In this document: positions 6,121 to 35,067 of the stretch, piece by piece | Numbering within the stretch: position 1 is the first letter of the stretch | Layout of the letters: the number at the start of each line of letters is the position of its first letter | Assembly (NCBI GenBank): GCA_000992085.1 | Contig: LBTN01000013.1 | Span: 1-39,438, forward strand | Reading direction: 5' to 3' | Length of the DNA stretch: 39,438 nt | Source of the DNA: Candidatus Magasanikbacteria bacterium GW2011_GWA2_37_8 | GTDB lineage: Bacteria; Patescibacteriota; Patescibacteriia; Magasanikbacterales; GWA2-37-8 | Notes under the pieces: generated by a model | Seen by the model: the letters and a program-made list of their open reading frames with translations, nothing else | Told to the model about the DNA's origin: nothing | Databases searched by the model: none | Made by a program: the position numbers and the translations under genes

Positions 6121-7218
6121 ATGTTAACTTCGGATTTTAATTACAATCTTCCCAAAGAATTAATTGCTCAAACTCCAGCAGAAAAGCGTGATGAATCGCG
6201 ACTTTTGGTGATTAATCGGGAGACGAAAGAAATTAATCACCGGCAGTTTTTTAATATTATCGAATATTTACGTCCGGGTGATTTGTTGGTTTGGAACAAT
6301 TCTAAAGTGTTTAAAGCACGTTTAAAAGGCGTACTTGTTTTAGATGAAGAAGTATTTGACTTAAAGGGAAAAGATTTAACGGATCGAATTTTAAATGAGC
6401 CAAGTGTTGAAATTTTTTTGGTTAGGCCAATGGAAAATTTTGGAGTATGGAAAGTATTGGCCAAGCCGGGTAAAAAATTACGTTTGGGTATGAAAGTAGT
6501 TTTTGCCGAAGATTTTTTTGCGGAAGTAATTACCAAAGAAGAAGACGGTACGGTATTGGTGCAATTTCAAGATGATGATATTACAGTGCGAACAAAAGCG
6601 AATAAGTATGGTGAAGTGCCAACACCGCCGTATATTAAGGAACAAGGAGCAAGGAATAAGGAACAACTTGTTGAACGGTATCAAACTGTGTATGCAAAAG
6701 AAGAAGGGTCGGTGGCGGCGCCGACAGCGGGGTTTCATTTTACCGAAGAGTTGATAGAAAAATTAAAAAATAAGGGAATAGAATTTGCCGAGGTTACTTT
6801 GCATGTTGGTCTTGGTACATTTTTGCCAGTTAAAGTAGAAAAAGTAGAAGAGCACAAAATGCACGCCGAATGGGTAGAATTAACCGATAAAAATGCGCAA
6901 TTAATAAACGCAGCCAAAGCTGAAGGTAGGCGAGTGGTGGTGGTTGGTACAACGGCAGTGCGAACTTTGGAAGGGATATTTGCCAAACGGGAAAGTTTAG
7001 AAGCGTTTAGTGGTGATATTAATATTTTTATTACCCCTGGTTTTAAATTTAAAGTAGTAGATGCATTAATTACCAACTTTCATTTACCCGAATCTACTTT
7101 AATAATGTTGGTGTCTGCTTTTGTGGGTGACAGAGAATTTACTCTAGATTGTTACAAAAAAGCAGTCGAAGCAAATTATCGTTTTTATAGTTTTGGCGAT
7201 GCAATGTTTGTTTTTTAG
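6121..7218 (+). CDS. queA: S-adenosylmethionine:tRNA ribosyltransferase-isomerase
   Basis: LPKELIAQ, GSVAAPTAGFHF, TLHVGLGTF, TNFHLPESTL, YRFYSFGDAM. Confidence 0.97.
   Translation: MLTSDFNYNLPKELIAQTPAEKRDESRLLVINRETKEINHRQFFNIIEYLRPGDLLVWNNSKVFKARLKGVLVLDEEVFDLKGKDLTDRILNEPSVEIFLVRPMENFGVWKVLAKPGKKLRLGMKVVFAEDFFAEVITKEEDGTVLVQFQDDDITVRTKANKYGEVPTPPYIKEQGARNKEQLVERYQTVYAKEEGSVAAPTAGFHFTEELIEKLKNKGIEFAEVTLHVGLGTFLPVKVEKVEEHKMHAEWVELTDKNAQLINAAKAEGRRVVVVGTTAVRTLEGIFAKRESLEAFSGDINIFITPGFKFKVVDALITNFHLPESTLIMLVSAFVGDREFTLDCYKKAVEANYRFYSFGDAMFVF
6636..6666 (+). repeat. In-frame heptamer tandem repeat (TAAGGAA/CAAGGAG) in queA
   Basis: TAAGGAA CAAGGAG CAAGGAA TAAGGAA CAA, encoding KEQGARNKEQ. 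Confidence 0.8.
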
Positions 7219-7219
7219 A

Positions 7220-7248
7220 TTGACAAAACGCTAAAAATGTGCTATAAT
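7220..7248 (+). promoter_or_regulatory. Consensus sigma70 promoter with extended -10
   Basis: TTGACA-17 nt-TATAAT with TGn before the -10. Confidence 0.85.
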
Positions 7249-7290
7249 GTATAGGTAAATGGCTTAATTTAGCCAAATAATTACAACAAT

Positions 7291-7581
7291 ATGGGAGAAC
7301 ATGCGCAAATTTTAAGTTCACATCGCGATGATGAAAGGTTTAGAATAATAAATGCTCCAAGCAAACCAAAAAAAGAAGGTGTGGTAGAAGCATTATCTTC
7401 CTCAGTTATTAGAAGAAGAGCAAGTGGCCAAGTTGTTGAAAGTACAACACCAGTAGCAAAAGTAGCAAAAGAAGATTATGCGCGAGAGATAAGAGCTAGA
7501 TTAAATGCTCCACTTACACAAGGCGCACAAGTAAGTAGAGAAGAACAAATGAATAGATTAAAAGCCTTGTTTAAAGAATAA
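7291..7581 (+). CDS. Hypothetical protein (96 aa)
   Basis: ORF bracketed by a consensus promoter and a terminator; no recognisable motif. Confidence 0.7.
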   Translation: MGEHAQILSSHRDDERFRIINAPSKPKKEGVVEALSSSVIRRRASGQVVESTTPVAKVAKEDYAREIRARLNAPLTQGAQVSREEQMNRLKALFKE

Positions 7582-7591
7582 TTTTAAAAAC

Positions 7592-7620
7592 AAAAAACCA
7601 ACGTTAGTCGTTGGTTTTTT
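7592..7620. terminator. Bidirectional terminator
   Basis: AAAAAACCAACG-ttagt-CGTTGGTTTTTT. Confidence 0.85.
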
Positions 7621-7630
7621 AATTTATTTC

Positions 7631-8056
7631 TTATCCTTCAATCGTTACACCCATTTGTTTAGCTGTGCCTTCTACCATATTCATAGCACCAATTAGATCT
7701 TTGGCATTAAGGTCGGGCATTTTTTGTTCGGCGATGGCCTTTACTTGAGCTTTGGTAATTTTACCAACTTTTTCTTGTAAAGGTTTGGCTGAACCTTTTT
7801 TAATACCAGCGGCTTTTTTAATCAATTCGGCTACTGGTGCAATTTTCATGATAAAGTCGAAACTGCGATCGGCGTAGACATTGATAATTACTGGTACTAC
7901 TTCGCCTTTTTTATCTTGGGTTTTGTCGTTAAATTCTTTACAAAAACCTTGGATATTTAGACCATGTTGACCAAGAGCTGGACCAACTGGTGGGGCTGGA
8001 TTGGCGGCACCGCCGACAATTTGTAATTTGATTTGGGTAATTAATTTTTTTGCCAT
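7631..8056 (-). CDS. rplK: 50S ribosomal protein L11
   Basis: [35 protein letters not shown]. Confidence 0.98.
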
Positions 8057-8121
8057 ATATTTTTTTAAATTAATTCTTTTAGAAAAGTGAGAAGCGTCAA
8101 ATTATGACCACCTTTCTTTTG

Positions 8122-8560
8122 TTATATCTTTTTTACTTGTAAAGCGTCTAATTCTACTGGTGTTTCGCGACCAAACATGGTAACCAATACTTTAATTTTA
8201 CCACGTTCAGCATCAACATTAGCGATTTTGCCTTCAAAGTTTTTAAATGGTCCGTCAACAATACGTACAACATCATTTACTTCTACATCAATTTTATGTT
8301 GTGGATCGCCATCGGCAGTGCGTTTTAATAACGACTCTACTTCTTTTTGATCAATTGGGGTAGGGGTAGTACCAGAACCAATAAAACCAGTAACATTTGG
8401 GGTATTGCGTACTACATACCAAGAATCATCGGTTACAATCATTTCTACCAAAATGTAACCAGGGAAGATTTTTTCTTCTACAGTTTACGTTTTCTTCATA
8501 GCCGCTATAGGTATGAAGTACATACCAACGACGACCAAGATTTAGGGTTTGTTTGGCCAT
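8122..8560 (-). pseudogene. nusG: Transcription factor NusG with an internal deletion/frameshift at ~8485 (probably assembly artefact)
   Basis: ATG 8560 gives MAKQTLNLGRRWYVLHTYSGYEENV; another frame resumes TVEEKIFPGYILVEM...GPFKNFEG...MFGRETPVEL. Confidence 0.88.
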
Positions 8561-8606
8561 ATTATAATAAACTAGTAAGGCTTTAAAATCTCAAAATATC
8601 TAATAA

Positions 8607-8801
8607 TTAACGAATAATTAAGGCAGTAATGCCCCAATTGAAAATATAATCTAAAATAGCAAAGGTAATCGCGACTCCAACGCTCATGCCAATTACCAAT
8701 AAACTGTAATTGACGGTTTGTTTTTTGGTGGGCCAGCTTACTTTTTTCATTTCAGCATAAGAGCCAATAAAATAATTTTTGATAGAAGTAGCTATATTCA
8801 T
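8607..8801 (-). CDS. secE: Preprotein translocase subunit SecE
   Basis: EMKKVSWPTKK motif plus one TM; upstream of nusG. Confidence 0.93.
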   Translation of the reverse strand: MNIATSIKNYFIGSYAEMKKVSWPTKKQTVNYSLLVIGMSVGVAITFAILDYIFNWGITALIIR

Positions 8802-8849
8802 ATATAATTTAGGTTTTTTAAAACAGCCTGGTGGCTGATTTATGTTGTA

Positions 8850-8878
8850 ATCATACACCAAAGCTGTTAAATTGTCAA
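8850..8878 (-). promoter_or_regulatory. Promoter of secE-nusG-rplK
   Basis: TTGACA-17 nt-TATGAT on the minus strand. Confidence 0.75.
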
Positions 8879-8908
8879 TACCTCGCCAAAAGGCAAGGCA
8901 AGGGGTGA

Positions 8909-11140
<2,232 letters not shown>

Positions 11141-11371
11141 TTAACATTTAAAATATGAAGCAATATTTTTTTTGCTTACACAATCTTTTACAATTAATGG
11201 TTATATTTTATCATAAATCAAAGATAAGGACAAGTCCCGCCAAAGGGTTAGGGAAGTGACAAAGCGGTGATTTTTGATGTTAATTTTAGGAGATTTTTTC
11301 TGTTTTTAAATAGGCGAATTGTTTAAAGTGGATAATTTTGCTATAATATATTTGTCTTAAATTAATATTTT

Positions 11372-12355: not shown

Positions 12356-12360
12356 ATTGT

Positions 12361-13455: not shown

Positions 13456-14313
13456 ATTTTAATTATGAAATTTAAACTTTATTCTCCTTATAAACCCGCT
13501 GGCTCTCAACCCGAAGCTATAAAACAGCTTGTTTTTGGTTTGGAGAGTGGAATGAATAAACAAACTTTGCTTGGTGTTACTGGCTCGGGAAAAACTTTTA
13601 CTATTGCTAATGTTATCGAAAAAGTGCAAATACCTACTTTGGTAATTGCCCATAACAAAACTTTGGCTGCCCAACTTTGTAACGAGTTTAGAGAATTTTT
13701 TCCGGGTAATGCCGTGGAATATTTTGTTTCTTATTACGATTATTATCAACCTGAGGCATATATGCCGGGTAGCGATACCTAAACCGAATACGAAAAAATA
13801 GTTTTGCATTTAGAGCAAGGGCAAAAATTAAATCGCACCGAAATGTTGGCGCAATTAATCGAAATGCAATTTGAGCGCACTACCAGTGATTTGCGTCGCG
13901 GTCAGTTTCGCCTGCGCGGACAAGTTTTTGAAGTAATGCCAGTGAACGAGGAAATAATTTATCGTTTAGAAATTTCTGAAAGGATTGATTTGATTGAAAT
14001 GGTAGATGCAGTAACCAGAAAAGTAAAACACGAAACGAGTGATATGTGGTTGTTTCCAGCCAAGCATTATGTAGCTGGTCCAGAAATGCGCGAGCGAGCT
14101 TTTAAGACTATTAAGCAAGAACTAAAAGAACAGCTGACTATCTTTGAGAAAAAGGGAAAAGTTTTGGAATACGAAAGATTAAAACGCCGTGTGAATTATG
14201 ATTTAGAAATGATAAAAAATATTGGCTATTGCAATGGTATTGAAAATTATTCACGTCATTTCGATGGACGCAATGCTGGTGAACCACCATTTAGTTTGTT
14301 GGATTATTTTAAT

Positions 14314-14344
14314 AAAGGAGTAAGGAGTAAGGAAAAAGGAGTAA
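14314..14344 (+). repeat. In-frame heptamer repeat in uvrB
   Basis: AAAGGAG TAAGGAG TAAGGAA AAAGGAG TAA, encoding KGVRSKEKGV. Confidence 0.85.
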
Positions 14345-14643: not shown

Positions 14644-14675
14644 AAAGGAATAAAGAATAAAGAAAAAGGAATAAG
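14644..14675 (+). repeat. In-frame heptamer repeat in uvrB
   Basis: AAAGGAA TAAAGAA TAAAGAA AAAGGAA TAAG, encoding KGIKNKEKGIS. Confidence 0.8.
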
Positions 14676-15205
14676 CCAATTATCCCAGATTGAAGATTTA
14701 ATAATTCGTATTGATGAGCGTATAAAAAGTAAAGAACGTGTGCTTGTAACTACTCTTACCAAAAAAATGGCAGAAGATTTGAACGATTATTTATTAAAGA
14801 AAAAGTATAAGGTGAAATATTTACATTCTGATATTCAAACTTTGGAACGTATCGAAACCATCACCGCACTTCGCAAAGGTATAATTGATGTGATAGTAGG
14901 TGTAAACTTGTTGCGTGAAGGTTTGGATATGCCAGAGGTGTCACTCGTGGCGATTTTAGATGCCGATAAAGAAGGATTTTTGCGTAGTGCCACTAGTTTG
15001 ATTCAGACTATTGGCCGCGCTGCTAGGAATGTTAATGGCCAAGTAATTTTGTATGCCGATAATATTACCCAATCAATTGAGAAAGCGATTAGCGAAACCA
15101 ATCGTCGTCGCACAATCCAGTTGGCCTACAACAAAGAACATAACATAACACCCAAAACAATTGAAAAAAGTATTAAAGATATTTTAGGAGAATTAGGGGT
15201 TAGTT

Positions 15206-15236
15206 CAAGGAGTAAGGAAAAAGGAGCAAGGAATAA
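15206..15236 (+). repeat. In-frame heptamer repeat in uvrB
   Basis: CAAGGAG TAAGGAA AAAGGAG CAAGGAA TAA, encoding RSKEKGARNK. Confidence 0.85.
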
Positions 15237-16050: not shown

Positions 16051-18627
16051 ATGCAAAATAAAATAATTATTCATGGAGCGAGAGAGCACAATCTAAAGAA
16101 TATAGATCTAGAGTTACCGCGTAATAAGATGGTTGTGTTTACAGGGCTTTCTGGCTCGGGAAAATCGAGCCTGGCTTTTGATACTATTTTTGCCGAGGGT
16201 CAACGTCGGTATATCGAATCTTTATCTGCGTATGCCAGACAGTTTTTGGGTGGTATGCAAAAACCAGATGTTGATGAAATAACTGGTTTGTCGCCGGCTA
16301 TTTCTATTGATCAAAAGGCACACAGCGCTAACCCGCGTTCTACTGTTGCTACTATCACCGAGATTTATGATTATTTACGTGTTTTGTATGCGCGTATTGG
16401 TGCCCCGCATTGTCCGATTTGTGGAACAAAAATTGAAAAAATGACAGTAGATGAGATGACAGAACGCGTAGTCCGTAAAGTTGAAAGTTATAAAGTTAAT
16501 AAAGTTAGCGAGTTAATTGTGTTGGCACCAGTAGTACGCGGACGTAAAGGAGAATATTATCAGATGCTTTATGATATGTATAACTCTGGATTTTTGGAAG
16601 TGCGGGTAGATGGTAAAATGAAAAGTTTAAAAGAAAGAATTGTTTTAGGAAAAAATACCAAACATACGATTGAGGTGGTGGTGGATAAGTTCATAGCCAA
16701 TAGTTCACAGCCAATAGTTGTAGAAAAAAGATTAGCCGAAGCAGTAGAAACTGCGGTGGGTTTGTCTAAGGGGCTTTGTACAGTAATTTTTCCAGATAGC
16801 GAAGAGCAGATTTTTTCTACGGAATATTCTTGTCCCAAAGACGGTTTTAGTTTTCCCGAAATCGAACCACGATTGTTTAGTTTTAATAGTCCTTATGGCT
16901 ATTGTGATTATTGTACTGGTCTTGGTACCAAAACTTTGTTTTCTGAAGAAGTTTGCCCAAAATGTAATGGTAAAAGATTAAACGAAACTGCTTTGAGTGT
17001 AAAAATTAATAACAAAAATATTTGGGAAGTGGTAAGTATGCATATTGGCGAAGTGCGGGATTTTTTTGCAGAAACAGAAATGTCTTTGCCGGCGCAAGAA
17101 CAAGAAATCGCTGGAGCAGTGCTTAAAGAAATCGCCAATCGTTTGCAATTTATGTATGATGTAGGTTTGCATTATTTAACCTTAAATCGTACAGCAGGCA
17201 CTTTAAGTGGTGGTGAAGCACAGCGTATTAGGTTGGCTTCGCAAGTGGGTACAAAATTGGTAGGTGCCTTGTATGTGCTAGACGAGCCGACAATTGGTTT
17301 ACATCAAAAAGATAATGATCAATTAGTAAAGACCCTGCGTAATTTATGTGACGTGGGTAATACTATTATTGTGGTCGAACATGATGAAGATACAATTTTA
17401 GTCAGTGATTGGATAGTGGATATTGGGCCCGGCGCTGGAAAACATGGCGGAGAAGTAGTGTATAGCGGCCCAACAAAGTCTGTCGTCCTGAGCGGAACCC
17501 GAAGGGCGGAGTCGAAGGATCCCTTAATTGATTGTAAAACATTTGGCGATCCTGCCAAATCACTTACTGGTAAATATTTACGCGGAGAAGTAAAAATTCC
17601 TTTACCAGAAAAACGTCGTAAAGTTGACAGTTCGACTCCAAAATTAAAAATTAAAGGCGCTACAGAACATAATTTAAAAAACATTAATGTGGAAGTTCCG
17701 TTGCGTCGTTTTGTTTGTTTAACTGGTGTGTCTGGTTCTGGCAAAAGTACTTTAATGCGCGATATTATTCAAAAAACAGTATCTAATAAATTTAATCATT
17801 TAAATAAACCAACGGGGCAATTTAAAGAAATTCTTGGTATAGAATATTTGGATCGAATTATTACTATTGACCAAAGTCCAATTGGTCGTACACCGCGTTC
17901 TAATCCAGCCACCTATACCAAAGCTTATGATTTTATTCGCGAATTATTCGCTTCAACTGCAGAAGCGCGTATGCGCGGTTTTAGTACTAGTCGTTTTAGC
18001 TTTAATGTACCAGGGGGAAGATGTGAAAATTGTGAAGGTAGGGGATTTTTGGAAATTGAAATGCATTTTTTACCTAGCGTGCAAATAGTGTGCGATGTGT
18101 GTAAAGGCAAAAGGTTTAATCAAGAAACTTTGCAGATTGATTTTAAAGGAAAGAATATTGCTGATGTTTTGGAAATGACTATTGAAGACGCTGAAGATTT
18201 TTTTCGTGATATCCCGGTGATTTATGATAAACTAAAAATATTAAACGAGGTAGGTTTAGATTATTTAACTTTGGGCCAATCTGCCACCACTTTGTCTGGT
18301 GGTGAAGCGCAGCGTATCAAACTTTCTCGTGAGTTAGCTAAACATGGCACTACCAAAACTTTGTACTTGTTAGATGAGCCAACCACTGGTTTGCACTATG
18401 AAGACGTGCGTAAATTATTAATTGTGCTTGAGCGTTTGGTAAGCCAAGGGAATACAGTATTGGTAATTGAACATAATTTAGATGTAATAAAATGCGCCGA
18501 TTGGATAATTGATTTGGGGCCAGAAGGAGGGGATAAGGGTGGAGAAGTGATAGCAACTGGGACACCAATAGAGGTGGCGCGAAAAAAAGGAAGTTATACT
18601 GGGGAGTATTTGAAAAAAGTTTTATAA
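16051..18627 (+). CDS. uvrA: Excinuclease ABC subunit A, copy 2 (lacks insertion domain)
   Basis: [24 protein letters not shown], two LSGGEAQR signatures, second Walker [10 protein letters not shown]; start at ATG 16051. Confidence 0.97.
17481..17523 (+). repeat. REP-like motif inserted in frame in uvrA
   Basis: TGTCGTCCTGAGCGGA-ACCCGAAGGGC-GGAGTCGAAGGATCCC; GC-rich; homologous to 35626-35653. Confidence 0.75.
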
Positions 18628-19043: not shown

Positions 19044-20291
19044 ATGGTAGTTGTTAAAAACAATATTCGTAGTTTTCCAGATAAACCAGGTATTTATCTT
19101 TTTTTTGATTCTCAAAAAGAACTTATTTATGTAGGTAAGGCTACAAGTTTGAAGAATCGGGTAAAGTCGTATTTTGTTAGCACTAAGACATCACGTCCGA
19201 TTGAGCAGATGATACATAAGGTGGTAGATATAAAAACTATCCAAACAGACTCGGTTTTGGAAGCGATTATTCTAGAGGCAAATTATATTAAAAAATTTCA
19301 GCCAAAGTATAATGTTGATTTAAAAGATGATAAGAGTTGGAATTATATTGTAATAACCAATGATAAATTTCCAAGAGTAAATACTATTAGACAACACGAA
19401 TTTAAAAATTTGAAATTAGAAATTAAAAATTTTCAATTTACATTTGGTCCTTATCCTGGTTTAAAAACCAAAGAAATGATGAGTCTGCTTCGTAAGTTAT
19501 TTTATATTTCCACTTGTGAATCAGACAAAGGTAAACCTTGTTTTTACCGTCAATTAGGACAGTGTTTGGGTGTGTGTATCGGAGAAATTAGTCCAAGTGA
19601 ATATAAAAAGAAAGTGATTAAGCCGTTAGTACAATTTTTAAGTGGGAAGAAAAAAAGTTTACTAAAAAATTTAGAGCGTGAAATGAAGTTAGCTTCTAAA
19701 AATCACGAGTTTGAAGAAGCGGGAAGACTGCGAGATCAAATTAGGCAATTAAATAGGATACAAGATGTAGCGCTACTAAATAAGAGTTTTGTGGAAAATG
19801 AAAAATTAGGAAATTCAGAAATTAGGAAGCTCAGAAATTTAAGGATTGAAGGGTATGATATTTCTAATTTAGGAACCACTGGCAAAGTGGGGAGTATGGT
19901 GGTATTTGAAAATAATGAGGCGAATAAATCGCAGTATCGTAAATTTAAGATTAAAACTGTAGTAGGCCAAAGCGATGTCGATTGTCTTGGCGAAGTATTG
20001 ATAAGGCGTTTAAAACATACAGACTGGCCGTTGCCCGAGGTATTTTTAATTGATGGCGGTATGCCTCAAGTTAATCGAACAAAAAAAATACTTAACTCTT
20101 TGAATATTAATATACCCGTAGTCGGAATTGCTAAAGGATCGGAACGAAAGAAAAATGATTTTATAATTAGTAATTATCAAAGTAAGGATTTTGTCTATTG
20201 GGTAAATGAAAACAAAAAATTATTAATTCAAGTGCGCGATGAAGCGCATCGATTCGCAATTAAGTATCAACGAACATTGCGTAAAATTTAA
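19044..20291 (+). CDS. uvrC: Excinuclease ABC subunit C (short form, no C-terminal HhH domain)
   Basis: GIY-YIG (PGIYLF..IYVGKA), UVR domain (FEEAGRLRDQ), RNase H-like IEGYDISN, LIDGG, RDEAHRFA. Confidence 0.95.
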   Translation: MVVVKNNIRSFPDKPGIYLFFDSQKELIYVGKATSLKNRVKSYFVSTKTSRPIEQMIHKVVDIKTIQTDSVLEAIILEANYIKKFQPKYNVDLKDDKSWNYIVITNDKFPRVNTIRQHEFKNLKLEIKNFQFTFGPYPGLKTKEMMSLLRKLFYISTCESDKGKPCFYRQLGQCLGVCIGEISPSEYKKKVIKPLVQFLSGKKKSLLKNLEREMKLASKNHEFEEAGRLRDQIRQLNRIQDVALLNKSFVENEKLGNSEIRKLRNLRIEGYDISNLGTTGKVGSMVVFENNEANKSQYRKFKIKTVVGQSDVDCLGEVLIRRLKHTDWPLPEVFLIDGGMPQVNRTKKILNSLNINIPVVGIAKGSERKKNDFIISNYQSKDFVYWVNENKKLLIQVRDEAHRFAIKYQRTLRKI

Positions 20292-22541: not shown

Positions 22542-23391
22542 TCATTTCAATTTCCACCAACCTGTCTAATCCAGACAGGTCTTTTTTTATTGTAATTTTT
22601 GCTTGAGGCAGGTACCTGTTGATTAATGATTTTATTGCTTTAATTTGGCTAGGGTCGATTTCGAGACAAATTAACAATGAACAATTAGTAATTAGCAAAA
22701 GAGGTTGTATTTGTAATAAAAGTTTTTCATAGAGAGAAAGCCCGTTGGTATTATCAGCAACCAGTGCTAGTTGTGGTTCTTTTTGAATTGATGGTTCGGA
22801 TATAAATTGATTGTTGGTAAGATAGGGGAGATTGGCGGTGATAATTAAATTATTAAATTGATAAATTGATAAATTGTTAAATGGTGACAGTAGATCGCCG
22901 TGTAAAAAATTTATGTTTACATTATGTATTTTAGCGTTTTTTTTGGCTACTCGTAGCGCTTGGCGAGAGATGTCGATTGCGATTGTTTTGATATTATTAT
23001 TTATATTTTTAATAATCGAAATCGGAATACAGCCAGAGCCTGTGCCAATATCAATTAAAATTAGGTTTGATTTTTCGTAATTTTTTATTTTTTTAATTAC
23101 CGTTTCAACCATAATTTCTGTATCTGGTCTTGGTATTAAAACATGCTTATTTACATAAAAATCCAACCCAAAAAATTCTTTATGTTTTAAAATTGCCGCC
23201 ACTGAATAGCCTTTTTTATATAAATACAGATAGTAGGCGAATTTAATTCTGGATAAAATACTAGGGCGGTATTCGGGGTGGGTCAGCAAAAATACGCGCG
23301 GTTGGTTTATACTGGCGGCTAAAAGCAAATCTAGATCTGTTGCAGCTATTTTGCCAGAGTATTTTTTTTGTATATTACTGAGATTTAACAT
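22531..23391 (-). CDS. prmC: Release factor glutamine methyltransferase (HemK)
   Basis: VLIPRPDTE, DIGTGSGCI, ANLPY (NPPY variant), KDLSGLDR. Confidence 0.93.
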   Translation of the reverse strand: MLNLSNIQKKYSGKIAATDLDLLLAASINQPRVFLLTHPEYRPSILSRIKFAYYLYLYKKGYSVAAILKHKEFFGLDFYVNKHVLIPRPDTEIMVETVIKKIKNYEKSNLILIDIGTGSGCIPISIIKNINNNIKTIAIDISRQALRVAKKNAKIHNVNINFLHGDLLSPFNNLSIYQFNNLIITANLPYLTNNQFISEPSIQKEPQLALVADNTNGLSLYEKLLLQIQPLLLITNCSLLICLEIDPSQIKAIKSLINRYLPQAKITIKKDLSGLDRLVEIEMIKS

Positions 23392-24856
23392 AAAGTATGA
23401 TTTCCTGATATTCTAGTAAATGCGGGTACGACTCTTCTTGGCGTTTCCAGCCACGACTTTCTAGCACCTTGTTAATATTAATACCGAGACTATCTTTGTG
23501 TAACAAAAAAATTTCATCGTTTTGTTCTACTGCTTTTTTATCTAACCAATCATTTATTTCTTTTTCTGGTCTTAAATACATTGCATAGTTGGTAGTAATA
23601 ATAGCATAATCTTCTGGTTGGTTTTCTTGGTCACCTTCGGTATAAGGGATAATTGATATTTTCCCTTGGTAGTATCTGTCGATCAATATTTTGTCAAAAA
23701 AATGTTCATAAATTACAACTTGTTTTTTGGCTGGATTATATTTCCCAGATAAATAATCATTAACCGTTTGCCAATTATTAAGTGGTAAAACTTTATTTAG
23801 TCGTGTTAGCCCAGGCCAAAGTAATAAACATAAAACAATAAGTGTTAATAATATTTTGTGTAAATAAAAATCAAGTAAGTAAACCAATAGTAGTATTGTC
23901 CAAGGAAGAATAATAATAAAAAATTTTATATTCCACAATCCTGTTAATGCAAAAGTTGTCCCAGGTACTAAAATAAAGATGGTTAATAAAATAAAATTTG
24001 TATTGAGCTTATTAGTCTTTTTTTGTTGGTAAAGATTAAAAGTAGTTATTAACAGGAAGGAGAAAATTATACCTATGCCAATATATTGGTTGCTTGGGCC
24101 TTGGAAAATTGATTGTAGGGTACCGACTAAATTTGTCCAATCATTACCTAATCCAAAATACCAAGCAGTACCAAAAAAAGAAGTAGAAATTTTAAATGTA
24201 AGAGATGGAATTATCCAAGCTAGCCAGATTGCAATTGGTATGGATACAATTTTTATCCAATAGATAATTTGACGGCGGAAAAGAATAAAAAGGGCAACTA
24301 GTTGTGCAAATAAAGTAATAATTCCAGTTAAATGGGAAAATAGCATTAAGCTGTTAATTACAACAAACCAAATTATATTCTTTTTTGTTTTTTTATCCAG
24401 AATAAAGATTTTATAAAATAAATCAGTAGATAGGATTATTAGTAAAATTAATAATGCATAGGTACGGGTGGTAGAAGATATAAAAATATGATAAGAATGA
24501 GCAGATAAGAAAAAAGATGCTAAAAACGCAATTTTTTCATTAAAAAGTTGGCAGGATAAACGATAAAAAAATATAATACTAATTACGCCGATAATTAAAC
24601 TTAACGATCTAGCAAAAAATTCTGTGGCAGGGACGATATAAAACCAAAGTTTTAAAAGTAAAAGATGAAGCGGTGGGTTGGTTTCCCAAAGCCAGAATTT
24701 CATACTATCTAGCCATGGTTTTTGGCTATATGTAAAACTGAACATTTCATCTCCCCAAAAATCACCATATTTAAGAATAGCTAACAATCTGAGACTGGTA
24801 GCTATAATTAAAATAAAAGTGAAGATTAGAAAATTTTTGTTATACCAAGGCTTCAT
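23375..24856 (-). CDS. GT-C-type (PMT/ArnT-like) membrane glycosyltransferase
   Basis: FWGDE, TNPPLH, RSLS, RTY motifs; many TM helices; soluble C-terminal domain. Confidence 0.85.
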
Positions 24857-25895
24857 AATCGGCAGTACGTAAGGCTAAAATTATTGGTTCTAGGTCGCCG
24901 TTTAAAATTGTGCTGATATTATTCCAATTCTCGTGGATGCGATGATCAGTAATGCGATCTTGCGGGAAATTGTAAGTACGAATTTTTTCGCTGCGATCAC
25001 CGGTACCAATTTGTGACAAACGTTTTTCGGTCATGGCCTTTTCTTTTTTCTCGCGTTCCATATCAAATAAGCGAGCACGCAGTACTGCCATGGCTTTTTC
25101 ACGATTGGCGGTTTGAGAACGTTCGTCCTGGCACTGTACTACCAAGTTAGTAGGAATGTGTACTATGCGTACAGCCGAATAAGTAGTATTTACACTTTGT
25201 CCGCCATGTCCGCCAGCACAAAAAGTATCGATACGCAAATCTTTTGGTTCGATTTTAATTTCGGTTTCCTCTATTTCTGGCATTACCGCTACAGTAACGG
25301 TTGAAGTATGGATGCGCCCAGCTTTTTCTGTTTCTGGCACTCGTTGTACACGATGTACGCCCATTTCATATTTTAAATCTTTATAAACATTGTGGCCTTT
25401 TACACCAAAAATAACTTCTTTAAAACCGCCAATACCATTTTGGCTTTCGTCGATTACTTCTACTTTCCATTTTTTACTTTCGGCATAATGAAAATACATG
25501 CGAAATAATTCGGCGGCAAATAAAGCAGATTCGTCGCCGCCAGCAGCAGCGCGAATTTCTATAATAACATCTTTTTTATCCATTGGATCTTGAGGTCGGG
25601 TGAGTTCTTCTAATTCTTGGTTTAATTTTGTTATATGATTTTTTAATTCGTCAATTTCAATCATAGTGAGATTGCGCATTTCTTCATCAGTTTCGTGCGC
25701 TATCATGCTTTCGGCTTGTCCTAAATCTTTTTCTGCTTTTTCCATTTGGCCAATTTTTTCTACTGTTAGTTTTAAGTCGTTATATTCTTGGGATGATTCT
25801 TTTAATTTTTTTTGATCACCAATAATAGCTGGATCCTGTAGATCGGCTTCTAGTTTTGTAAATTTAATTTTTAGATCAAGATATTTTTGGAGCAT
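24840..25895 (-). CDS. prfA: Peptide chain release factor 1
   Basis: [10 protein letters not shown] (PxT motif), [22 protein letters not shown]. Confidence 0.97.
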
Positions 25896-25900: not shown

Positions 25901-25939
25901 TAAGGAATAAGGAATAAGGAGTAAGGAGTAAGGAGTAAG
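25901..25939 (+). repeat. Heptamer tandem array (TAAGGAR x5.5) in the prfA leader
   Basis: TAAGGAA x2, TAAGGAG x3, TAAG; partial inverted copy at ~25984-26000. Confidence 0.9.
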
Positions 25940-26011
25940 TGATGTGATTTGGTATGGTAATTGTTTTATGTCGGTTTGGCTTTTTATTCCTTATTCTTTT
26001 ATTATAAATAA

Positions 26012-26050: not shown

Positions 26051-26060
26051 AATGAATATG

Positions 26061-27617: not shown

Positions 27618-27646
27618 TTGACTTGCCCTTAATTTTCCGGTATACT
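27618..27646 (+). promoter_or_regulatory. Promoter of infB
   Basis: TTGACT-17 nt-TATACT, ending 10 nt before the ATG. Confidence 0.7.
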
Positions 27647-27656
27647 GTTATTTACT

Positions 27657-29565
27657 ATGAATGTAAGTGAATTGGCCAGACAACTTCGAGTGCATCCTCA
27701 AAAACTTTTGCAAATATTGCCAGAGTTTGGTTTTGATATTGGTGCAAAATCTATCAAAATCGATGATCGTGTGGCGCAACAAATCCAACGTGAATGGCGT
27801 CGAATAAAATATATTTTAGATGAACGTGAGCGTAAAGAAAAAGAGGAAGAAAAAGAAAAAGAAAAAGAGCAGCGTCGTGAAAGCGGGGTGGCTGTGTCTA
27901 TCCCGTCAGTTTTAACTGTACGCCAATTAGCAGACAAATTGCAAACGCCAATCAATAAGCTAATGCTAGAATTAATGAAAAATGGTATTTTGGCTACTCA
28001 AAACGAAAATATTGATCACGATACCGCTGTCTTGGTTGCAGAAGAGATGGGGTTTTCTATTGCCGAAGAAGAAGTATTGGCTGTTACTGAAGAAAATACA
28101 AGCCAACATGTTCAAAATTTAGAAAAAACTTTAGGAACTGGTGCTACTGTTCCACGTCCACCAGTAATTGTGGTAATGGGCCATGTTGATCATGGTAAAA
28201 CAAAATTACTCGACGCTATTCGTAGCACTAATGTGGTTGCCCAAGAAGCTGGCGGTATTACCCAACATATTGGTGCTTATCAGGTGGTTTGGAATAATCC
28301 AAAAACAAAAGCTCAAACTCCCTTAACTTTTATTGATACTCCTGGCCACGAAGCTTTTACTGTTATGCGTAGTCGTGGTGCAAAAGTTGCTGATATTGCT
28401 ATTTTGGTAGTAGCCGCCGATGATGGTGTAAAACCACAAACAATTGAAGCAATAAATATTATTAAAGCTGCCAAATTGCCAGTTGTGGTAGCAATTAATA
28501 AAATTGATCGTGAAGGCGCTGATCCACAACGTGTGCGAACCGAATTGTCTCAACATAATATTTTAGCCGATGATTGGGGTGGTGATGTGCCAATGGTAGA
28601 AATTTCTGCAAAACAAAATTTAAATATAGATAAATTGTTAGATACTTTGTTATTAGTTGCCGAAATGAACGCCGAAAATATTAAAGCCAATCCCGATCGT
28701 CCTGCCGCTGGTACAGTAATTGAAGCCCATGTAGACAAAGGACAAGGTCCAGTAGCTACTATTTTGGTGCAAACCGGAACTTTGCACAACAACGATCCCT
28801 TGGTAGTTAATGGGGGATGTTTTAGATGTTAGCCAAGCTGGTGATGCGACAGAAATTAATTTAAAAACTAAACGTACTCAACAATCTGGCGCCGAGCAGC
28901 GTCCAGTGGTGGCTACAGACGAAAATGATGAAGAAGCCAAACAAATGTATAACATTGTTTTAAAAACCGACATGCTTGGTTCTTTAGAAGCAATTGTTGC
29001 TTCTTTAGAAAAAATTAGCCATGATGAAGTGGGTGTAAAAGTGGTAGGGAAAGGTTTGGGTAATATTACCGCCGACGACATTTCTTTAGCAGCCGCTACC
29101 GGAGCTACGGTTTTTGGTTTTAATGTTAACACCACTCCAATCGCCACCGAAATGATGCAAAATGGTGGAGTGCAATTTAAGCAGTATCATGTTATTTATG
29201 ATTTGTTAGATTATGTTAAGGGCGAATTAGAAAAAATGCTAAATCCAGAATTAATTGTTACTGAATTAGGTAATTTTAAAGTTATCGCCCTCTTTCGTAC
29301 CGAAAAAAACAGTATGGTGGTAGGCGGTAGAGTAGAAAAAGGAAAAATATTGCGTAATTGTTTAGCCCATGTTAAACGTGGTGGTGAAATTATTGGTAAA
29401 GGTAAAATTACTAAATTACAAATTAGTAAACAAGAAATGAATGAAGTTCCAGAAGGTAGCGAATGCGGCATCCAGTTTGAAGGTAAATTAAAATTAGAAG
29501 TAGGCGATTTATTAGAAGCCTACAAAGAAGAGAAAAAAGAAAAAAAACTTGTATTAAACGTATAA
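27657..29565 (+). pseudogene. infB: Translation initiation factor IF-2 with a deletion/frameshift at ~28812-28816 (probably assembly artefact)
   Basis: [40 protein letters not shown]; C-terminal KTDMLGSLEAI and GSECGI lie in another frame. Confidence 0.92.
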
Positions 29566-29582
29566 ATATTAATTTATTTTTT

Positions 29583-29909: not shown

Positions 29910-29921
29910 GTATTTTATTTT

Positions 29922-29950
29922 AAAAAAGACGCTTTCAAGCGTCTTTTTTT
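29922..29950 (+). terminator. Intrinsic terminator
   Basis: AAAAAAGACGCT-ttca-AGCGTCTTTTTTT. Confidence 0.85.
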
Positions 29951-30018
29951 GTGTTTGCACAATTTTTCATAATTTAGTATAATGCCTTTTGTCTTATTAA
30001 TGTTTAATTTATATTTTT

Positions 30019-31242: not shown

Positions 31243-31247
31243 TATTT

Positions 31248-32105
31248 ATGCCAGAATTGCCCGAAGTAGAAACGATTAAACGCGATTTATTTAAACGAAT
31301 CTTGAACCACAAGATTCGTTTGGTTGAAATTCGTGATAAGAAAATAGTAAAGTCCAATAATTTTGTTAAAAAATTAATTGGTAATGAAATAAAGGGTATT
31401 GAGAGGCGAGGCAAGTTGTTGATATTTGTTTTAAAAAATAAAGAATATTTATTAGTTCATTTAAAAATGACCGGTCAACTAATGTTTAAAGCTAAAAATA
31501 AGTCTGGTAATGTTATAGGCGGACACAGTTTAACAAAAATGGAGGATAATTTTAGTGAAAAATTTACACGAGTGGTAATTGATTTTGGAGTGGGGAAGTT
31601 GTTTTTTAATGATATGCGGCGGTTTGGGTATATGAAGATAGTTGGGGAAGAAGAAAAAGAAAAAATTATTACTAAAGATTTTGGTATCGAGCCGTTGACG
31701 CCAGATTTTACTTGGGATAAATTTAACAAATTATTTAACAAGCGCACAACGTCTATTAAAGCTTTTTTGTTAAATCAAAAAATTATTGCTGGATTAGGTA
31801 ATATTTATGCCGATGAAGCTTGTTTTTGTGCAGGAATTAAACCAGACAGGCAAGTAAACAATATAAATTTAGAAGAAATAAAAAAATTATTTAAATGTAT
31901 ACCAAAAATTTTGCAACTGGCAATAAAAAATCGTGGTACTACTTTTAATAGTTTTGTTGATGGCGATGGTCAAAAGGGAAGTCATTTTAATTTTTTAAAA
32001 GTTTACGGCAGACACAAAGAAAAATGTAAACGTTGTTCAGAAAAAATAAAGAAAATTCGTCTAGTTGGCCGAGGAACACATTTTTGTCCGGGGTGCCAGA
32101 AATAA
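31248..32105 (+). CDS. mutM: Formamidopyrimidine-DNA glycosylase
   Basis: MPELPEVET, RRGK, HLKMTG, AGLGNIYADE, C-terminal zinc finger. Confidence 0.97.
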   Translation: MPELPEVETIKRDLFKRILNHKIRLVEIRDKKIVKSNNFVKKLIGNEIKGIERRGKLLIFVLKNKEYLLVHLKMTGQLMFKAKNKSGNVIGGHSLTKMEDNFSEKFTRVVIDFGVGKLFFNDMRRFGYMKIVGEEEKEKIITKDFGIEPLTPDFTWDKFNKLFNKRTTSIKAFLLNQKIIAGLGNIYADEACFCAGIKPDRQVNNINLEEIKKLFKCIPKILQLAIKNRGTTFNSFVDGDGQKGSHFNFLKVYGRHKEKCKRCSEKIKKIRLVGRGTHFCPGCQK

Positions 32106-32211
32106 GGCTGTTTCTTGCTTTTTTATCTATACTTTAGTAAAATTAAGATTACCAATTAAGGTAATTTTTGATATATACTTTTATGATCTATTGAGTCATA
32201 AAAATATATAT

Positions 32212-35067
32212 TCCGGAATATATAAAACCAAAGACAATAGTGATAAACCCAAATATTATGTTTTGGATATGTTTCCGTATCCTTCTGGTGCTGGGTTGCA
32301 CGTTGGTCACCCTAAGGGATATATTGCCACCGATGTTGTAGCCAGAATGAAAATGATGCAAGGGTACAATGTGCTTCACCCTATGGGTTGGGATGCTTTT
32401 GGGCTTCCAGCAGAAAATTATGCTTTAAAAAACAAAGTACATCCTTCGGTAGCTACCGAAGAAAATATAAAAACTTTTAAAAAACAATTAGGTTTACTTG
32501 GTCTTACTTATGATTGGGATCGCGAAGTAAATACCACTGATCCAGAATATTACAAATGGACCCAATGGGCATTTATTCAAATGTTTAAGCGTGGGCTCGC
32601 GTTTGAGTCTTATGAACCAATTAATTGGTGCCCTGAATGTAAAACTGGTTTGGCTAATGAAGATTTGGAAAATGGTTTGTGCGAACGTTGTGGTAGTGTA
32701 GTGGTGCAAAAACCGATGCGTCAGTGGGTGCTTAAAATTACCGACTATGCAGAAAGATTATTGAATGATATTGATAAGTTGGATAAATGGCCAACTTCAA
32801 TTAAAGAAATGCAGAAAAATTGGATTGGAAAGAGTGAAGGGGCGACAGTAAAATTTTCTGTCATTTCGAACGAAGGTGAGAAATCTGCGCTCGAGGTTTT
32901 TACCACTAGGCCAGATACTTTGTTTGGAGCAACATATTGTGTAATTGCGCCAGAACATGAATTGATAATGAATCAAGAATCAAGAATCAAGAATTATGAC
33001 GAAGTAAAAAATTATGTTGAGAATGCAAAAAAGAAAACTACTTTAGAAAGAACTGATTTGCAGAAAGAAAAAACTGGTGTAGAAGTAAAAGGTATAAAAG
33101 CAATTAATCCAGTAAATAACGAAGAGCTGCCAATTTTTGTAGCTGATTATGTTTTGGGCGGATATGGTACAGGCGCGATTATGGCAGTGCCAGCTCACGA
33201 TGAACGTGATTTTGAGTTTGCTAAAAAATATAATTTGCCAATTAAACGAGTGGTGGCACCGCATTTTGTTGATCCTGCTAATCCACCACATTCTGATTTG
33301 CCAACTACTAGGCGTAAAACTATTCATGTTATTATTCGCAATCCAAAAGACGGTAAGGTTTTGCTTTTAAATTGGTTTACAAATCTTACTCCAAGTCGTC
33401 CACATTTGCATACTTTAGTCCTTGGCGGGATAGAGGAAGGAGAAAATTTAGCTGTGGCCGCAATTAGAGAAGCACAAGAAGAAACTGGCTACAAGAATTT
33501 TAAGTTTTTAAAAGAAGTAGATTTAGAAGTTCATACTGAATATTATACTGAACACAAAGGGCAGAATCGCTATGCAGAAATTCATATAGTAGAATTGGAA
33601 TTAGAAGACGAAGAAAGAGAAAAAATTCCAGAGAGTGAATTAAAAAACCATGAGCCAGTTTGGGTAGAAGAAAAAGAAGTGCCAGAGAAGTTAAATGTTA
33701 TTGATGGTCCAATAATTTGGGGTGCTTATAAGAATGGTTACTTCGCCTTTACTGAAGATGGTGTAACTGTCAATTCTGAATTTTTAAATAATTTAAAAAC
33801 TCCAGAGGCGAAAACAAAAATAATTGCCTGGTTGGAAGAGCAAGGCGTGGGTAAAAGAAAAGTACAATACAAATTACGTGATTGGGTATTTTCTCGACAA
33901 CGTTATTGGGGCGAGCCAATCCCACTTGTTAATTGTGGAAAATGTGGTTGGGTATCAGTGCCTGAATTAGAATTACCACTTAAATTACCGGAAGTAAAAA
34001 ATTATGAACCAAGTGGAACAGGGGAGTCGCCACTCGCAAATATTGAAAAATGGGTGAATACCATTTGTCCAGTGTGTGGCGGGCCAGCAAAAAGAGAAAC
34101 TAATACCATGCCACAGTGGGCAGGCTCGTGTTGGTATTACCTCGCATATTGCATGCTTGGAAAGGAAAAAGGAGTAAGGAGTAAGGAAAAATATAAATGG
34201 GATAAAGAAAAAATAAATTATTGGAATCCGGTGGATTTGTATGTTGGCGGTGCCGAACATGCTACGCGTCATCTTATCTACGCTCGTTTTTGGCATAAGT
34301 TTTTGTTTGATATTGGCGTAGTAGCGAACGAAGAACCATTTACACGTTTGCAAAATGTGGGTTTGATTTTGGCTGAAGATGGACGAAAAATGAGTAAACG
34401 TTGGAACAATGTTATCAATCCAAATGATATGGTAGATCAGTTTGGCGCAGATGCAATGAGATTGTATGAAATGTTTATGGGGCCGTTTGATCAGCCGTGC
34501 GCTTGGAGTACAAATGGCGTGGTAGGTACAAGAAGGTTTTTAGAAAAGGTGTGGTGGTTAAGTGAAAAAGTTAATGATTTAGAAGATAACAAAACTAATG
34601 AGAAAACAAAATTAGATACATTACTTCATCAAACTATAAAAAAAGTTACCGAAGATATTGAAGCGATGAGATATAACACCGCAATTTCTCAGTTGATGAT
34701 TTTGGTGAATGAGATGTCAAAAGAAAATCAGCTATTTCTTACTCATTATTCCTTACTCCTTCAATTGCTTGCTCCCTTTGCTCCTCATGTTTCAGAAGAA
34801 TTGTGGTATGAATTAGGGAATAATGAATCCATTTTTGAGTCCGTATGGCCGCAGTGTGATAATGCACTAGCCAAATCAGAAACTTTTACTTTGGCTATTC
34901 AGATTAATGGTAAATTGCGTGAGACTATTGAGGTGTCTGCTGATATATCAGAAGAAGAAGCAAAAGCTCAAGTTTTGGCTTTGCCACAAATTCAAAAGTG
35001 GTTGGAAGATAAAGAACCAAAGAAAATAATTTATGTAAAAGGGAAATTAATTAGTATTGTAGTTTAG
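32212..35067 (+). CDS. leuS: Leucine--tRNA ligase with an inserted Nudix domain; true N-terminus missing
   Basis: MFPYPSGAGLHVGH, GWDAFGLPAEN, FTTRPDTLFG, GTGAIMAVPAHDERD, SRQRYWG, KMSK; homology begins at SGIYK (32212). Confidence 0.95.
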   Translation, partial: SGIYKTKDNSDKPKYYVLDMFPYPSGAGLHVGHPKGYIATDVVARMKMMQGYNVLHPMGWDAFGLPAENYALKNKVHPSVATEENIKTFKKQLGLLGLTYDWDREVNTTDPEYYKWTQWAFIQMFKRGLAFESYEPINWCPECKTGLANEDLENGLCERCGSVVVQKPMRQWVLKITDYAERLLNDIDKLDKWPTSIKEMQKNWIGKSEGATVKFSVISNEGEKSALEVFTTRPDTLFGATYCVIAPEHELIMNQESRIKNYDEVKNYVENAKKKTTLERTDLQKEKTGVEVKGIKAINPVNNEELPIFVADYVLGGYGTGAIMAVPAHDERDFEFAKKYNLPIKRVVAPHFVDPANPPHSDLPTTRRKTIHVIIRNPKDGKVLLLNWFTNLTPSRPHLHTLVLGGIEEGENLAVAAIREAQEETGYKNFKFLKEVDLEVHTEYYTEHKGQNRYAEIHIVELELEDEEREKIPESELKNHEPVWVEEKEVPEKLNVIDGPIIWGAYKNGYFAFTEDGVTVNSEFLNNLKTPEAKTKIIAWLEEQGVGKRKVQYKLRDWVFSRQRYWGEPIPLVNCGKCGWVSVPELELPLKLPEVKNYEPSGTGESPLANIEKWVNTICPVCGGPAKRETNTMPQWAGSCWYYLAYCMLGKEKGVRSKEKYKWDKEKINYWNPVDLYVGGAEHATRHLIYARFWHKFLFDIGVVANEEPFTRLQNVGLILAEDGRKMSKRWNNVINPNDMVDQFGADAMRLYEMFMGPFDQPCAWSTNGVVGTRRFLEKVWWLSEKVNDLEDNKTNEKTKLDTLLHQTIKKVTEDIEAMRYNTAISQLMILVNEMSKENQLFLTHYSLLLQLLAPFAPHVSEELWYELGNNESIFESVWPQCDNALAKSETFTLAIQINGKLRETIEVSADISEEEAKAQVLALPQIQKWLEDKEPKKIIYVKGKLISIVV
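32859..32886 (+). repeat. REP-like motif in frame in leuS
   Basis: TGTCATTTCGAACGAAGGTGAGAAATCT, encoding VISNEGEKS. Confidence 0.6.
32966..33000 (+). repeat. In-frame heptamer repeat (TCAAGAA) in leuS
   Basis: TAATGAA TCAAGAA x3 TTATGAC, encoding MNQESRIKNYD. Confidence 0.85.
34161..34191 (+). repeat. In-frame heptamer repeat in leuS
   Basis: AAAGGAA AAAGGAG TAAGGAG TAAGGAA, encoding KEKGVRSKEK. Confidence 0.85.

Follow-up and report, generated by a model that had tools for sequence, protein, structure and literature searches.

Heptamer arrays within housekeeping genes of a Magasanikbacteria genome: probable arms of small 23S IVS-type gene cassettes

The 39,438-nucleotide stretch of DNA analysed here (the window) is contig LBTN01000013.1 of Candidatus Magasanikbacteria bacterium GW2011_GWA2_37_8, and it carries short tandem arrays of seven-nucleotide units, several of them in frame within unrelated housekeeping genes. 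In our view, these arrays are probably the repeat arms, or the remnants of arms, of small selfish cassettes of the type known as intervening sequences (IVSs) in 23S rRNA, with the copies inside genes having been filtered by selection into translated loops. The elements of this interpretation that the analysis demonstrates are the architecture of the cassette, the insertion of one cassette as a unit, its derivatives, the absence of arrays in relatives, the selection filter and the recurrence of the architecture across phyla.

In its full form, such a cassette would consist of about four heptamers, a four-helix-bundle gene (PF05635/TIGR02436, 'IVP' or 'S23p') and the same heptamers inverted. A gene-less form would be a hairpin in which an AAGGA array is followed, after 10 to 35 nt, by a TCCTT array, and single arms would lie scattered over the chromosome. 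A copy within a gene would survive if the net change in length were a multiple of three, if no TAA came to lie in frame, if the peptide read from the sense strand were hydrophilic and if the site were a loop tolerant of changes in length; the survivors would be translated as short loop insertions. It is the spread of the copies that we infer, no transposase having been found among the Y1/RAYT type that was sought. The IVP protein, a relative of Avd, may recognize its own heptamer array, and RNase III may process the paired arms in RNA, by analogy with the IVSs of rRNA. Avd is a nucleic-acid-binding pentamer.

The window corresponds to contig C13 of a small genome recovered from groundwater metagenomes (864,631 bases in 44 contigs, 36.5% G+C, approximately 90% complete). 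We refer to this source genome as G000 and to its contigs by C numbers; other G numbers denote the genomes of relatives and L numbers denote loci. Contigs assembled independently for two samples (runs X1 and X3) contain the arrays of the window without any difference, and the arrays are therefore not artefacts of assembly; this comparison rests on assembled contigs, which can hide rare variants.

Cassettes and their derivatives

On contig C5, inverted AAGGA arrays at 34218–34243 (plus strand) and 34603–34628 (minus strand), 360 nt apart, enclose an open reading frame (ORF) of 116 amino acids (34251–34598). The encoded protein matches PF05635 (23S_rRNA_IVP) with 111 bits and TIGR02436 ('four helix bundle protein') with 108 bits, and it matches PDB entry 2gsc with an E value of 3.8e-14. 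The ATG follows the final AAGGAG of the 5' arm at a distance of 9 nt. The preliminary description of the window had suggested that four-helix-bundle or IVP genes might co-occur with the arrays, and this is what is observed in the same genome. No IVP or four-helix-bundle gene lies inside the window itself; the full-length cassettes sit on C5 and C28. The IVP gene on C28 (10431–10745; PF05635, 127 bits; TIGR02436, 122 bits) is flanked by inverted GAATCAT/GAATTAT arms, a heptamer family that also builds the window arrays at 32960 and 36827.

In G012, G131 and G017 the genes that flank the C5 cassette are only 3–6 nt apart, and in G000 the arm–gene–arm unit of approximately 410 nt stands exactly between the same two genes. 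The end of the upstream gene now consists of array-encoded residues. This comparison with the empty site shows that the C5 cassette was inserted as one discrete unit. We note that G006 (L172) has a different four-helix-bundle cassette with other heptamers at this junction, on the upstream side of the MQST gene. Either the junction is a hot spot for insertion, or an old cassette there has since diverged.

Shorter elements with the same arms are also present. Approximately ten inverted pairs have arms 10–35 nt apart, always in the order AAGGA array and then TCCTT array. Several of these pairs retain the TAAGTGAT/TAAGTAAT junction of the cassette beside the 5' arm, and for this reason they look like derivatives of the cassette that lack the ORF. 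TAAGTGAT follows the 5' arm in the C5 cassette, in several of the short hairpins and in the window array at 25901. Three of the pairs lie inside ORFs, namely trmD, mnmA and an ATP-grasp/NUDIX gene. Paired arms were computed to fold at −21 to −28 kcal/mol (z scores of −4.2 to −5.5), while solo arrays do not fold (z scores of −0.7 and −1.4). The 23S rRNA of G000 (C38:4700–4900; L169 2840–3020) carries an ORF-less insertion of approximately 165 nt in the helix-45 loop, the classical IVS site, and the arms of this insertion are again inverted heptamers (AATTTTC x4 and GAAATTA x4). A gene for RNase III is present in G000.

The C5 protein bears a weak resemblance to the Avd protein of diversity-generating retroelements (DGRs; NF033474, 31 bits, below the cut-off), and it is conceivable that the arrays are written by a DGR-related, reverse-transcriptase-dependent process of templated patch replacement with an Avd-like IVP as cofactor. 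Such a process would explain the three of 13 compared sites, described below, at which an array has replaced other sequence without a net change in length. Contig C12 (17900–19200; L003) does carry a bAvd-like gene (PF22296, 65 bits) beside a reverse transcriptase ORF (RVT_1, 66 bits). However, this DGR-like module has no heptamer flanks and is not next to any heptamer array, no reverse transcriptase adjoins any IVP cassette that we examined, no template/variable repeat pair was identified, although no search was aimed at one, and most sites are net insertions. We regard this mode of origin as highly improbable.

Abundance of the arrays

A scan of the genome, as proposed in the preliminary description, shows 45 four-unit arrays with a period of seven nucleotides and no more than eight for each of the remaining periods in the range 4 to 12. 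Four-unit period-7 arrays are absent from two genomes simulated with a first-order Markov model. The 743 long ORFs, which make up 87% of the genome, contain 22 arrays in sense orientation and 6 in antisense, compared with none in each of 20 codon shuffles of these ORFs. The arrays are far beyond chance, and the possibility that their frequency would be matched by codon-shuffled DNA, which the preliminary description had named as its own refutation, can be set aside.

Counting NAAGGAN arrays of at least three units gives 52 in G000, comprising 33 arrays of four units, 16 of three and three of five. At least ten heptamer families are present in the genome, and when all families are taken together 57 of 90 arrays have four units. 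Coding DNA is under-represented among the sites, with 28 of the 52 AAGGA arrays in the 87% of the genome that lies under long ORFs.

Arrays of the window

The arrays first described in queA, in uvrB (three), at 34161 in leuS and in non-coding DNA at 25901 are all present, that at 14644 in uvrB being degenerate. Other heptamer families in uvrA and uvrC, at 32960 in leuS, in a methyltransferase gene and in the intergenic region at 38545 had been overlooked. The features of the window are listed below.

6636..6666, plus strand: AAGGA-type array of four units, in frame in queA, encoding IKEQGARNKEQ
14314..14344, plus strand: AAGGA-type array of four units, in frame in uvrB, encoding NKGVRSKEKGV
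14644..14676, plus strand: degenerate array (AAGGA/AAAGA units), in frame in uvrB, encoding GKGIKNKEKGI
15206..15236, plus strand: AAGGA-type array of four units, in frame in uvrB, encoding SRSKEKGARNK
16688..16719, plus strand: array with a 14-nt period (AGTTCAC/AGCCAAT), inside uvrA
19398..19439, plus strand: array of the GAAATTA/AAAAATT family, inside uvrC
25901..25947, plus strand: non-coding array of five units (25901–25939) with the flank TAAGTGAT, antisense to the release-factor gene
32960..33001, plus strand: GAATCAA x3.6 array (another heptamer family), in frame in leuS
34161..34191, plus strand: AAGGA-type array of four units, in frame in leuS, encoding GKEKGVRSKEK
34735..34761, minus strand: taken not to be an element; conserved leuS helix HYSLLL with a chance likeness to two reverse units
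36827..36860, plus strand: GAATTAT/GAATCAA array, inside a methyltransferase gene
38545..38572, plus strand: array of the AACAATT family, between an MBL-fold gene and a YkuD gene

The near-identical peptides that had been noticed in unrelated enzymes are indeed encoded (NKGVRSKEKGV, SKEKGARNKR, KEQGARNKEQ and GKEKGVRSKEKY). The queA array lies in a variable linker 3' of the conserved PPY motif, where G012 has an unrelated, non-periodic sequence of equal length and the enzymes of other orders are approximately five amino acids shorter. In an AlphaFold2 model of QueA, the confidence score (pLDDT) of residues 174–180 is below 50, which agrees with placement of the array peptide in a surface loop; the neighbouring conserved motif scores similarly low, and the model is accordingly only weakly indicative.

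The uvrB array at 14314 corresponds to a net gain of 24 nt compared with G012 and is absent in all four aligned relatives. The degenerate array at 14644 represents a net gain of 18 nt relative to the same genome, and that at 15206 involves no net change, G012 having a purine-rich linker with many lysine codons at this position. In leuS, the array at 34161 lies in a loop whose length varies, and it adds approximately seven amino acids (about 21 nt) relative to G131 and G003. The leuS GAATCAA array entails no net change in length, the residues IKN(Y/W) being common to the relatives; in the second IVP cassette, that on C28, the arms consist of related heptamers. The heptamers of the array at 36827 are identical to the C28 arms. 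The AGTTCAC/AGCCAAT pair in uvrA forms the arms of an IVP cassette in the relative G184 (L080), and AACAATT-type arms, as at 38545, flank close homologues of the C5 IVP in eight relatives. The non-coding array at 25901 lies upstream of the release-factor gene (24840–25895, minus strand), 6 nt from its start.

One feature of the preliminary description did not stand. The reverse array reported at 34735–34761 in leuS (FLTHYSLLL) contains only two perfect units, involves no change in length and aligns without gaps with HYSLF, NFALF and MYSTL in relatives. On the evidence of this alignment, we regard it as conserved ancestral sequence.

The uvrB gene of the window contains an in-frame TAA and lacks 43 conserved residues. 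The X1 contig has 129 extra bases exactly between positions 13781 and 13782 of the window uvrB; the gene is probably intact, with an assembly gap in the window at 13780–13782. We considered whether uvrB might be a pseudogene that tolerates arrays, and rejected this because the in-frame stop is the assembly gap.

Host genes and comparison with relatives

Beyond the window, Pfam identifies array-bearing ORFs for Dus, PPDK, Ddl, Pol I, ArgS, TrmD, FemAB, GlmS, Map, transketolase, a radical-SAM protein, an ATP-grasp/NUDIX protein, GrpE, Wzy and TsaD. Solo arms are found in at least 17 genes. Some genes identified in this way carry multiple arrays, with three in an IleS-like class I synthetase and four in MnmA.

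For the alignments we took orthologues from those genomes of the collection that are nearest to G000; even G012, the closest, belongs to a different genus (its QueA protein is 88% identical). Presence or absence in orthologues, a comparison suggested in the preliminary description, proved informative, as the nearest relatives lack the arrays. At ten of the 13 sites compared, the array amounts to a net insertion of +9 to +69 nt, and at the remaining three to a replacement of the same length. Relative to the orthologues, the mnmA sites differ by +18, +45 (a hairpin pair) and +12 nt, the trmD site by +69 nt (a hairpin pair) and the sites of the IleS-like gene by +18, +9 and +12 nt. The sites are loops of variable length among relatives, situated between conserved motifs, as had been proposed; this is evident in the alignments of queA, uvrB, leuS, mnmA, trmD and the IleS-like gene. 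The interdomain loop of trmD contains CAAATCN units in G017 (L152) where G000 has an AAGGA hairpin; different heptamer arrays can occupy one loop in different genomes.

We also observed other insertions in queA. The orthologues in G005 (L027), G010 (L019) and G013 (L020) have in-frame insertions of 10–45 residues at three or four loop positions. Some of these share motifs, such as EESLS, which occurs twice in G005, and they may belong to other repeat families.

The growth of simple-sequence repeats by polymerase slippage from chance single-unit seeds has to be considered as an origin for the arrays, with a period of seven favoured by the replication machinery, as proposed by Mrazek and colleagues (2007, as cited in the parts of PMC4679880 and PMC4692102 available to us). 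Single-unit look-alikes do occur at some empty sites (for example AATAAGGAATA in trmD of G131, and ATCAAGAAT, which is conserved at the position of the leuS GAATCAA array). They hint at seeding, but the codons there are rich in A and G, so the resemblance may be due to chance. The three sites without net change in length would also be in keeping with slippage, as would the difference of one heptamer unit between Coxiella strains (available text of PMC4990558). The variable unit number and homogeneous units of a slippage locus are, however, not what is found here. Array size is nearly fixed, with 33 of the 52 AAGGA arrays having exactly four units; the units within one array vary at the first and last positions, which slippage would homogenize; and the contigs from the two samples are identical. 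Moreover, a step of 7 nt would shift the reading frame of essential genes, and slippage does not account for inverted pairs with spacers, for the flanking of IVP genes by arrays (28 of 52 loci compared with two of 40 controls, see below) or for the insertion of a whole arm–gene–arm unit as one block. Slippage thus seems to us a very unlikely source of the arrays.

The positions of some arrays raise a different question. Arrays are found directly upstream of the start codons of the release-factor gene (25901), def and ksgA, the sequence AAGGAG resembles a Shine–Dalgarno sequence, and MacGregor proposed a role beside start codons for TAACTGA repeats (in the portions of PMC4679880 consulted). Together with the near-constant number of units, both among AAGGA arrays and among all families (57 of 90), this could mean that selection maintains the arrays as cis-acting sites of a regulatory network, recognized by an RNA-binding or DNA-binding protein with affinity for repeats, either the IVP pentamer or another. 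Against this, more than half of the arrays lie in unrelated housekeeping ORFs at loops, with no common placement, the relatives do without them, and the genome holds at least ten heptamer families. We consider a regulatory origin unlikely, although it is compatible with derivation from cassettes, as sites spread by cassettes could have been put to use later.

Coding phase and translation

The preliminary description placed the signal at the level of nucleic acid, and the coding phase of the arrays agrees with this. The canonical unit is TAAGGAR. Outside genes, the first base is T in 73 of 90 units. Among sense units within genes, T is found in none of the 31 units with the first base at codon position 1 (C in 13, A in 16 and G in two), but in 18 of 27 units at codon position 2 and in 22 of 28 at position 3. 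The absence of T at codon position 1 is explained by the fact that TAA would be a stop codon there, and the ambiguity '(T/A/C)' originally given for the first base arises because T is replaced wherever TAA would be in frame. Since the avoidance of stops tracks codon phase, and since the same arrays occur in intergenic and antisense positions, the signal resides in the nucleic acid.

The strict avoidance of in-frame stops also shows that the arrays in genes are read by ribosomes and are not removed from the mRNA; removal from the mRNA, which we had considered, is ruled out on the same grounds. Selection at the level of the peptide, or ancestral sequence, was likewise rejected as an explanation for all arrays, as the three frames yield different peptides, some copies are intergenic or antisense, and relatives lack the arrays.

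The orientation of the arrays inside genes is biased, with 23 in sense and five in antisense. Read from the sense strand, the units encode peptides rich in K, E, G, R, S and N in all three frames, whereas the antisense strand encodes peptides rich in L, S, F, Y, P and T. Antisense copies were found near the end of TsaD, in a membrane protein of the Wzy type and as members of hairpin pairs.

Recurrence of the cassette architecture

Period-7 arrays, defined here by lag-7 identity of at least 80% over four units at no more than 140 nt from the IVP gene, adjoin 28 of 52 IVP loci and are present in two of 40 control windows. Periods of 5, 6, 8, 9 and 10 were found beside the IVP gene at 2, 0, 2, 2 and 0 of the 52 loci, respectively. 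Four-helix-bundle genes also lie between inverted arrays of 3–5 heptamers in five relatives that are rich in arrays and in 15 genomes that encode close homologues of the C5 protein, and the heptamer varies from cassette to cassette. Homologues 53–64% identical to the C5 protein have AAGGA-like arms at eight loci and AACAAT-like arms at nine. In a tree of 17 IVP proteins, of which two of 14 inner branches are supported, heptamer type changes three times compared with a mean of 6.6 after shuffling, and kinship alone could give this clustering.

A tblastn search of plasmids matched 31 records, of which 12 were inspected. By eye, short tandem repeats adjoin the gene at all 12 loci, which include the following.

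Nostoc edaphicum plasmid: GGGAGTA / TCCCTAC
Calothrix plasmid: GGGTGTA
Geminocystis plasmid: AAGGGAA / TTCCCTT
Anabaena plasmid: GGTGACA
Riemerella plasmid: AACCTTG
Azospirillum plasmid: locus within an apparent 23S rRNA
Gemmatirosa plasmid: 8-nt unit
Pseudanabaena plasmid: long arrays, direct rather than inverted

The architecture of inverted heptamers around an IVP gene recurs across phyla, including on plasmids of Cyanobacteria and Bacteroidota.

The distribution is patchy: of 201 genomes sampled from the order, 22 contain perfect four-unit AAGGA arrays, and within the family of G000 only 11 of the 84 other genomes hold any. The number of pattern matches, which counts overlapping matches inside long arrays more than once, is high only in G000 (20) and in five genomes from another family, namely G103 (30), G184 (19), G133 (18), G134 (13) and G188 (7). 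G103 and G133 encode a close homologue of the C5 protein with AAGGA arms.

Several observations weigh against derivation from cassettes. At 24 of the 52 IVP loci the flanks fall below the strict period-7 threshold, many of them appearing degenerate by eye, and two of the plasmid loci depart from the inverted heptamer pattern, with the 8-nt unit in Gemmatirosa and the direct arrays in Pseudanabaena. G134, G184 and G188 are rich in arrays and have no close C5 homologue bearing AAGGA arms, from which it would follow that arrays can outlast, or do not need, the cognate gene. There is no net change in length at three of the 13 compared sites, namely queA (relative to G012), uvrB 15206 and the leuS GAATCAA array, and the varying net sizes do not fit a simple cut-and-paste element of fixed length. 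Judging from these varying changes, three of them zero, a microhomology-type or templated process would fit better. The C5 junction, which is the only clean empty site, shows no target-site duplication, and no Y1/RAYT transposase was found in the 90%-complete genome, other transposase families not having been searched.

Some cassettes and four-helix-bundle genes have distinctive neighbours. At L110 (G016) and L111 (G190), an IVP cassette separates the start of a class I synthetase-like gene from a conserved leader-like sequence. On the Nostoc edaphicum plasmid (L156), the four-helix-bundle gene lies between two ribonucleotide reductase subunit genes, on the opposite strand. At the plasmid loci L156, L158, L160 and L167 these genes are inside operons, and the positions seen among these loci include between cas10 and cmr3, between cas6 and cas4 and beside cas4. 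Their occurrence in the cas operons of plasmids fits an earlier survey of cas loci, the available part of which reports 18 IVP genes between cas genes (PMC3936711).

Comparison with known systems

The 23S rRNA IVSs of Leptospira encode an S23p/IVP protein, and to our knowledge no function is known for this protein family. The cassettes described here share with the 23S IVSs the gene family (PF05635/TIGR02436) and inverted arms able to form a stem around the ORF, and the 23S rRNA of G000 itself has a heptamer-armed insertion at helix 45 in a genome that encodes RNase III. In the Coxiella IVS, three GACAGAT repeats and a degenerate fourth stand just upstream (5') of the S23p ORF; the first of these repeats is a cleavage site of RNase III, and strains differ by one unit (available text of PMC4990558). 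A survey of rRNA insertions in the candidate phyla radiation likewise describes IVP ORFs in insertions of 16S and 23S rRNA (bioRxiv 10.1101/2024.02.27.582315, parts available). The full-length copies on C5 and C28 have the gene and the inverted arms of a classical IVS but not its location in helix 25 or 45 of 23S rRNA. In contrast to the IVSs, the copies in the window are intergenic or in frame within protein genes, and most copies in this genome are single arms or ORF-less hairpins which are translated rather than excised.

Rickettsia palindromic elements (RPEs) are short palindromic repeats found in frame in unrelated housekeeping genes, where they add peptides at permissive sites; we know of no transposase for them. 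The analogy drawn in the preliminary description to RPEs and to cyanobacterial heptamer repeats holds, the former for in-frame insertion into housekeeping genes and the latter for short tandem arrays of 7 nt. The hairpin pairs in trmD (+69 nt) and mnmA (+45 nt) are in-frame palindromic insertions of the RPE kind. However, the elements of G000 belong to another phylum, their arms are tandem heptamers, a protein-coding full-length form exists and many copies are half elements of only 26–33 nt.

The short tandemly repeated repetitive (STRR) sequences of cyanobacteria are heptamer tandem repeats. They share with the present arrays, as do the GGGAATC and TAACTGA repeats, the short 7-nt tandem structure and a patchy distribution suggestive of horizontal spread, and arrays of this kind adjoin the four-helix-bundle genes on the plasmids of Nostoc, Calothrix, Geminocystis and Anabaena. 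Those repeats are described as mainly intergenic, whereas 28 of the 52 AAGGA arrays lie inside ORFs. GGGAATC / GGGGA(C/T)T is enriched in Xanthomonas and Nostoc (Rehm et al., PMC4692102), and TAACTGA, typically in 2–6 copies, in Beggiatoaceae, Cyanobacteria and Bacteroidetes (MacGregor, PMC4679880); the sections of these papers available to us give the origin of both as unknown, and according to them over-representation of heptamer tandem repeats in bacteria has been reported for decades, with no known source or function. The terms 'S23' and 'intervening' do not occur in either text as available, nor does 'four helix' in PMC4679880 or 'four-helix' in PMC4692102.

Repetitive extragenic palindromic (REP) elements are mobilized by RAYT transposases. 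The arrays resemble these and miniature inverted-repeat transposable elements in that dispersed, non-autonomous inverted-repeat derivatives occur beside a longer form that carries a gene. They differ in that the C5 site has no target-site duplication, no Y1/RAYT gene was found in a search confined to these transposases, and the gene carried encodes a small four-helix bundle. We know of no catalytic activity for the four-helix-bundle IVP.

The literature that we found connects heptamer arrays with IVP genes only for the Coxiella IVS, and there as a passing remark. A search that did not extend to subscription journals and supplements yielded no paper linking dispersed heptamer arrays to IVP genes. 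What is new here is the proposed source of the arrays, namely IVP gene cassettes, which may also be the source of bacterial heptamer repeats in general. We would tentatively extend the proposal, with more doubt than confidence, as follows. IVPs may be sequence-specific readers of heptamers, each pentamer recognizing some 4–5 heptamers of its own arm and promoting their copying or retention. The excess of heptamers in bacteria (cyanobacterial STRRs, TAACTGA, GGGAATC and the arrays of G000) would then be the footprint of a single class of mobile cassette, widespread but so far unrecognized, which also remodels the surface loops of essential proteins.

If heptamer repeats and the IVP family belong together, both questions, of whether an IVP binds its own array and whether a cassette seeds arrays, become directly testable. 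In a genome as small as this one, such elements can add translated peptides to the loops of enzymes that are essential; UvrA/B/C, LeuS, the IleS-like synthetase, TrmD, MnmA and Pol I are among those affected. The arrays are a source of variation in protein length, and they call for caution in annotation and alignment.

Other features of the window

Two further features of the window were noted. The infB gene (IF-2; 27657–29565) is present as two overlapping ORFs, 27657–28832 and 28810–29565, as a result of either a frameshift or an assembly error. A period-8 repeat, TTAAATTG x4.8 with 90% matches, lies at 22845–22882 inside a methyltransferase gene on the minus strand.

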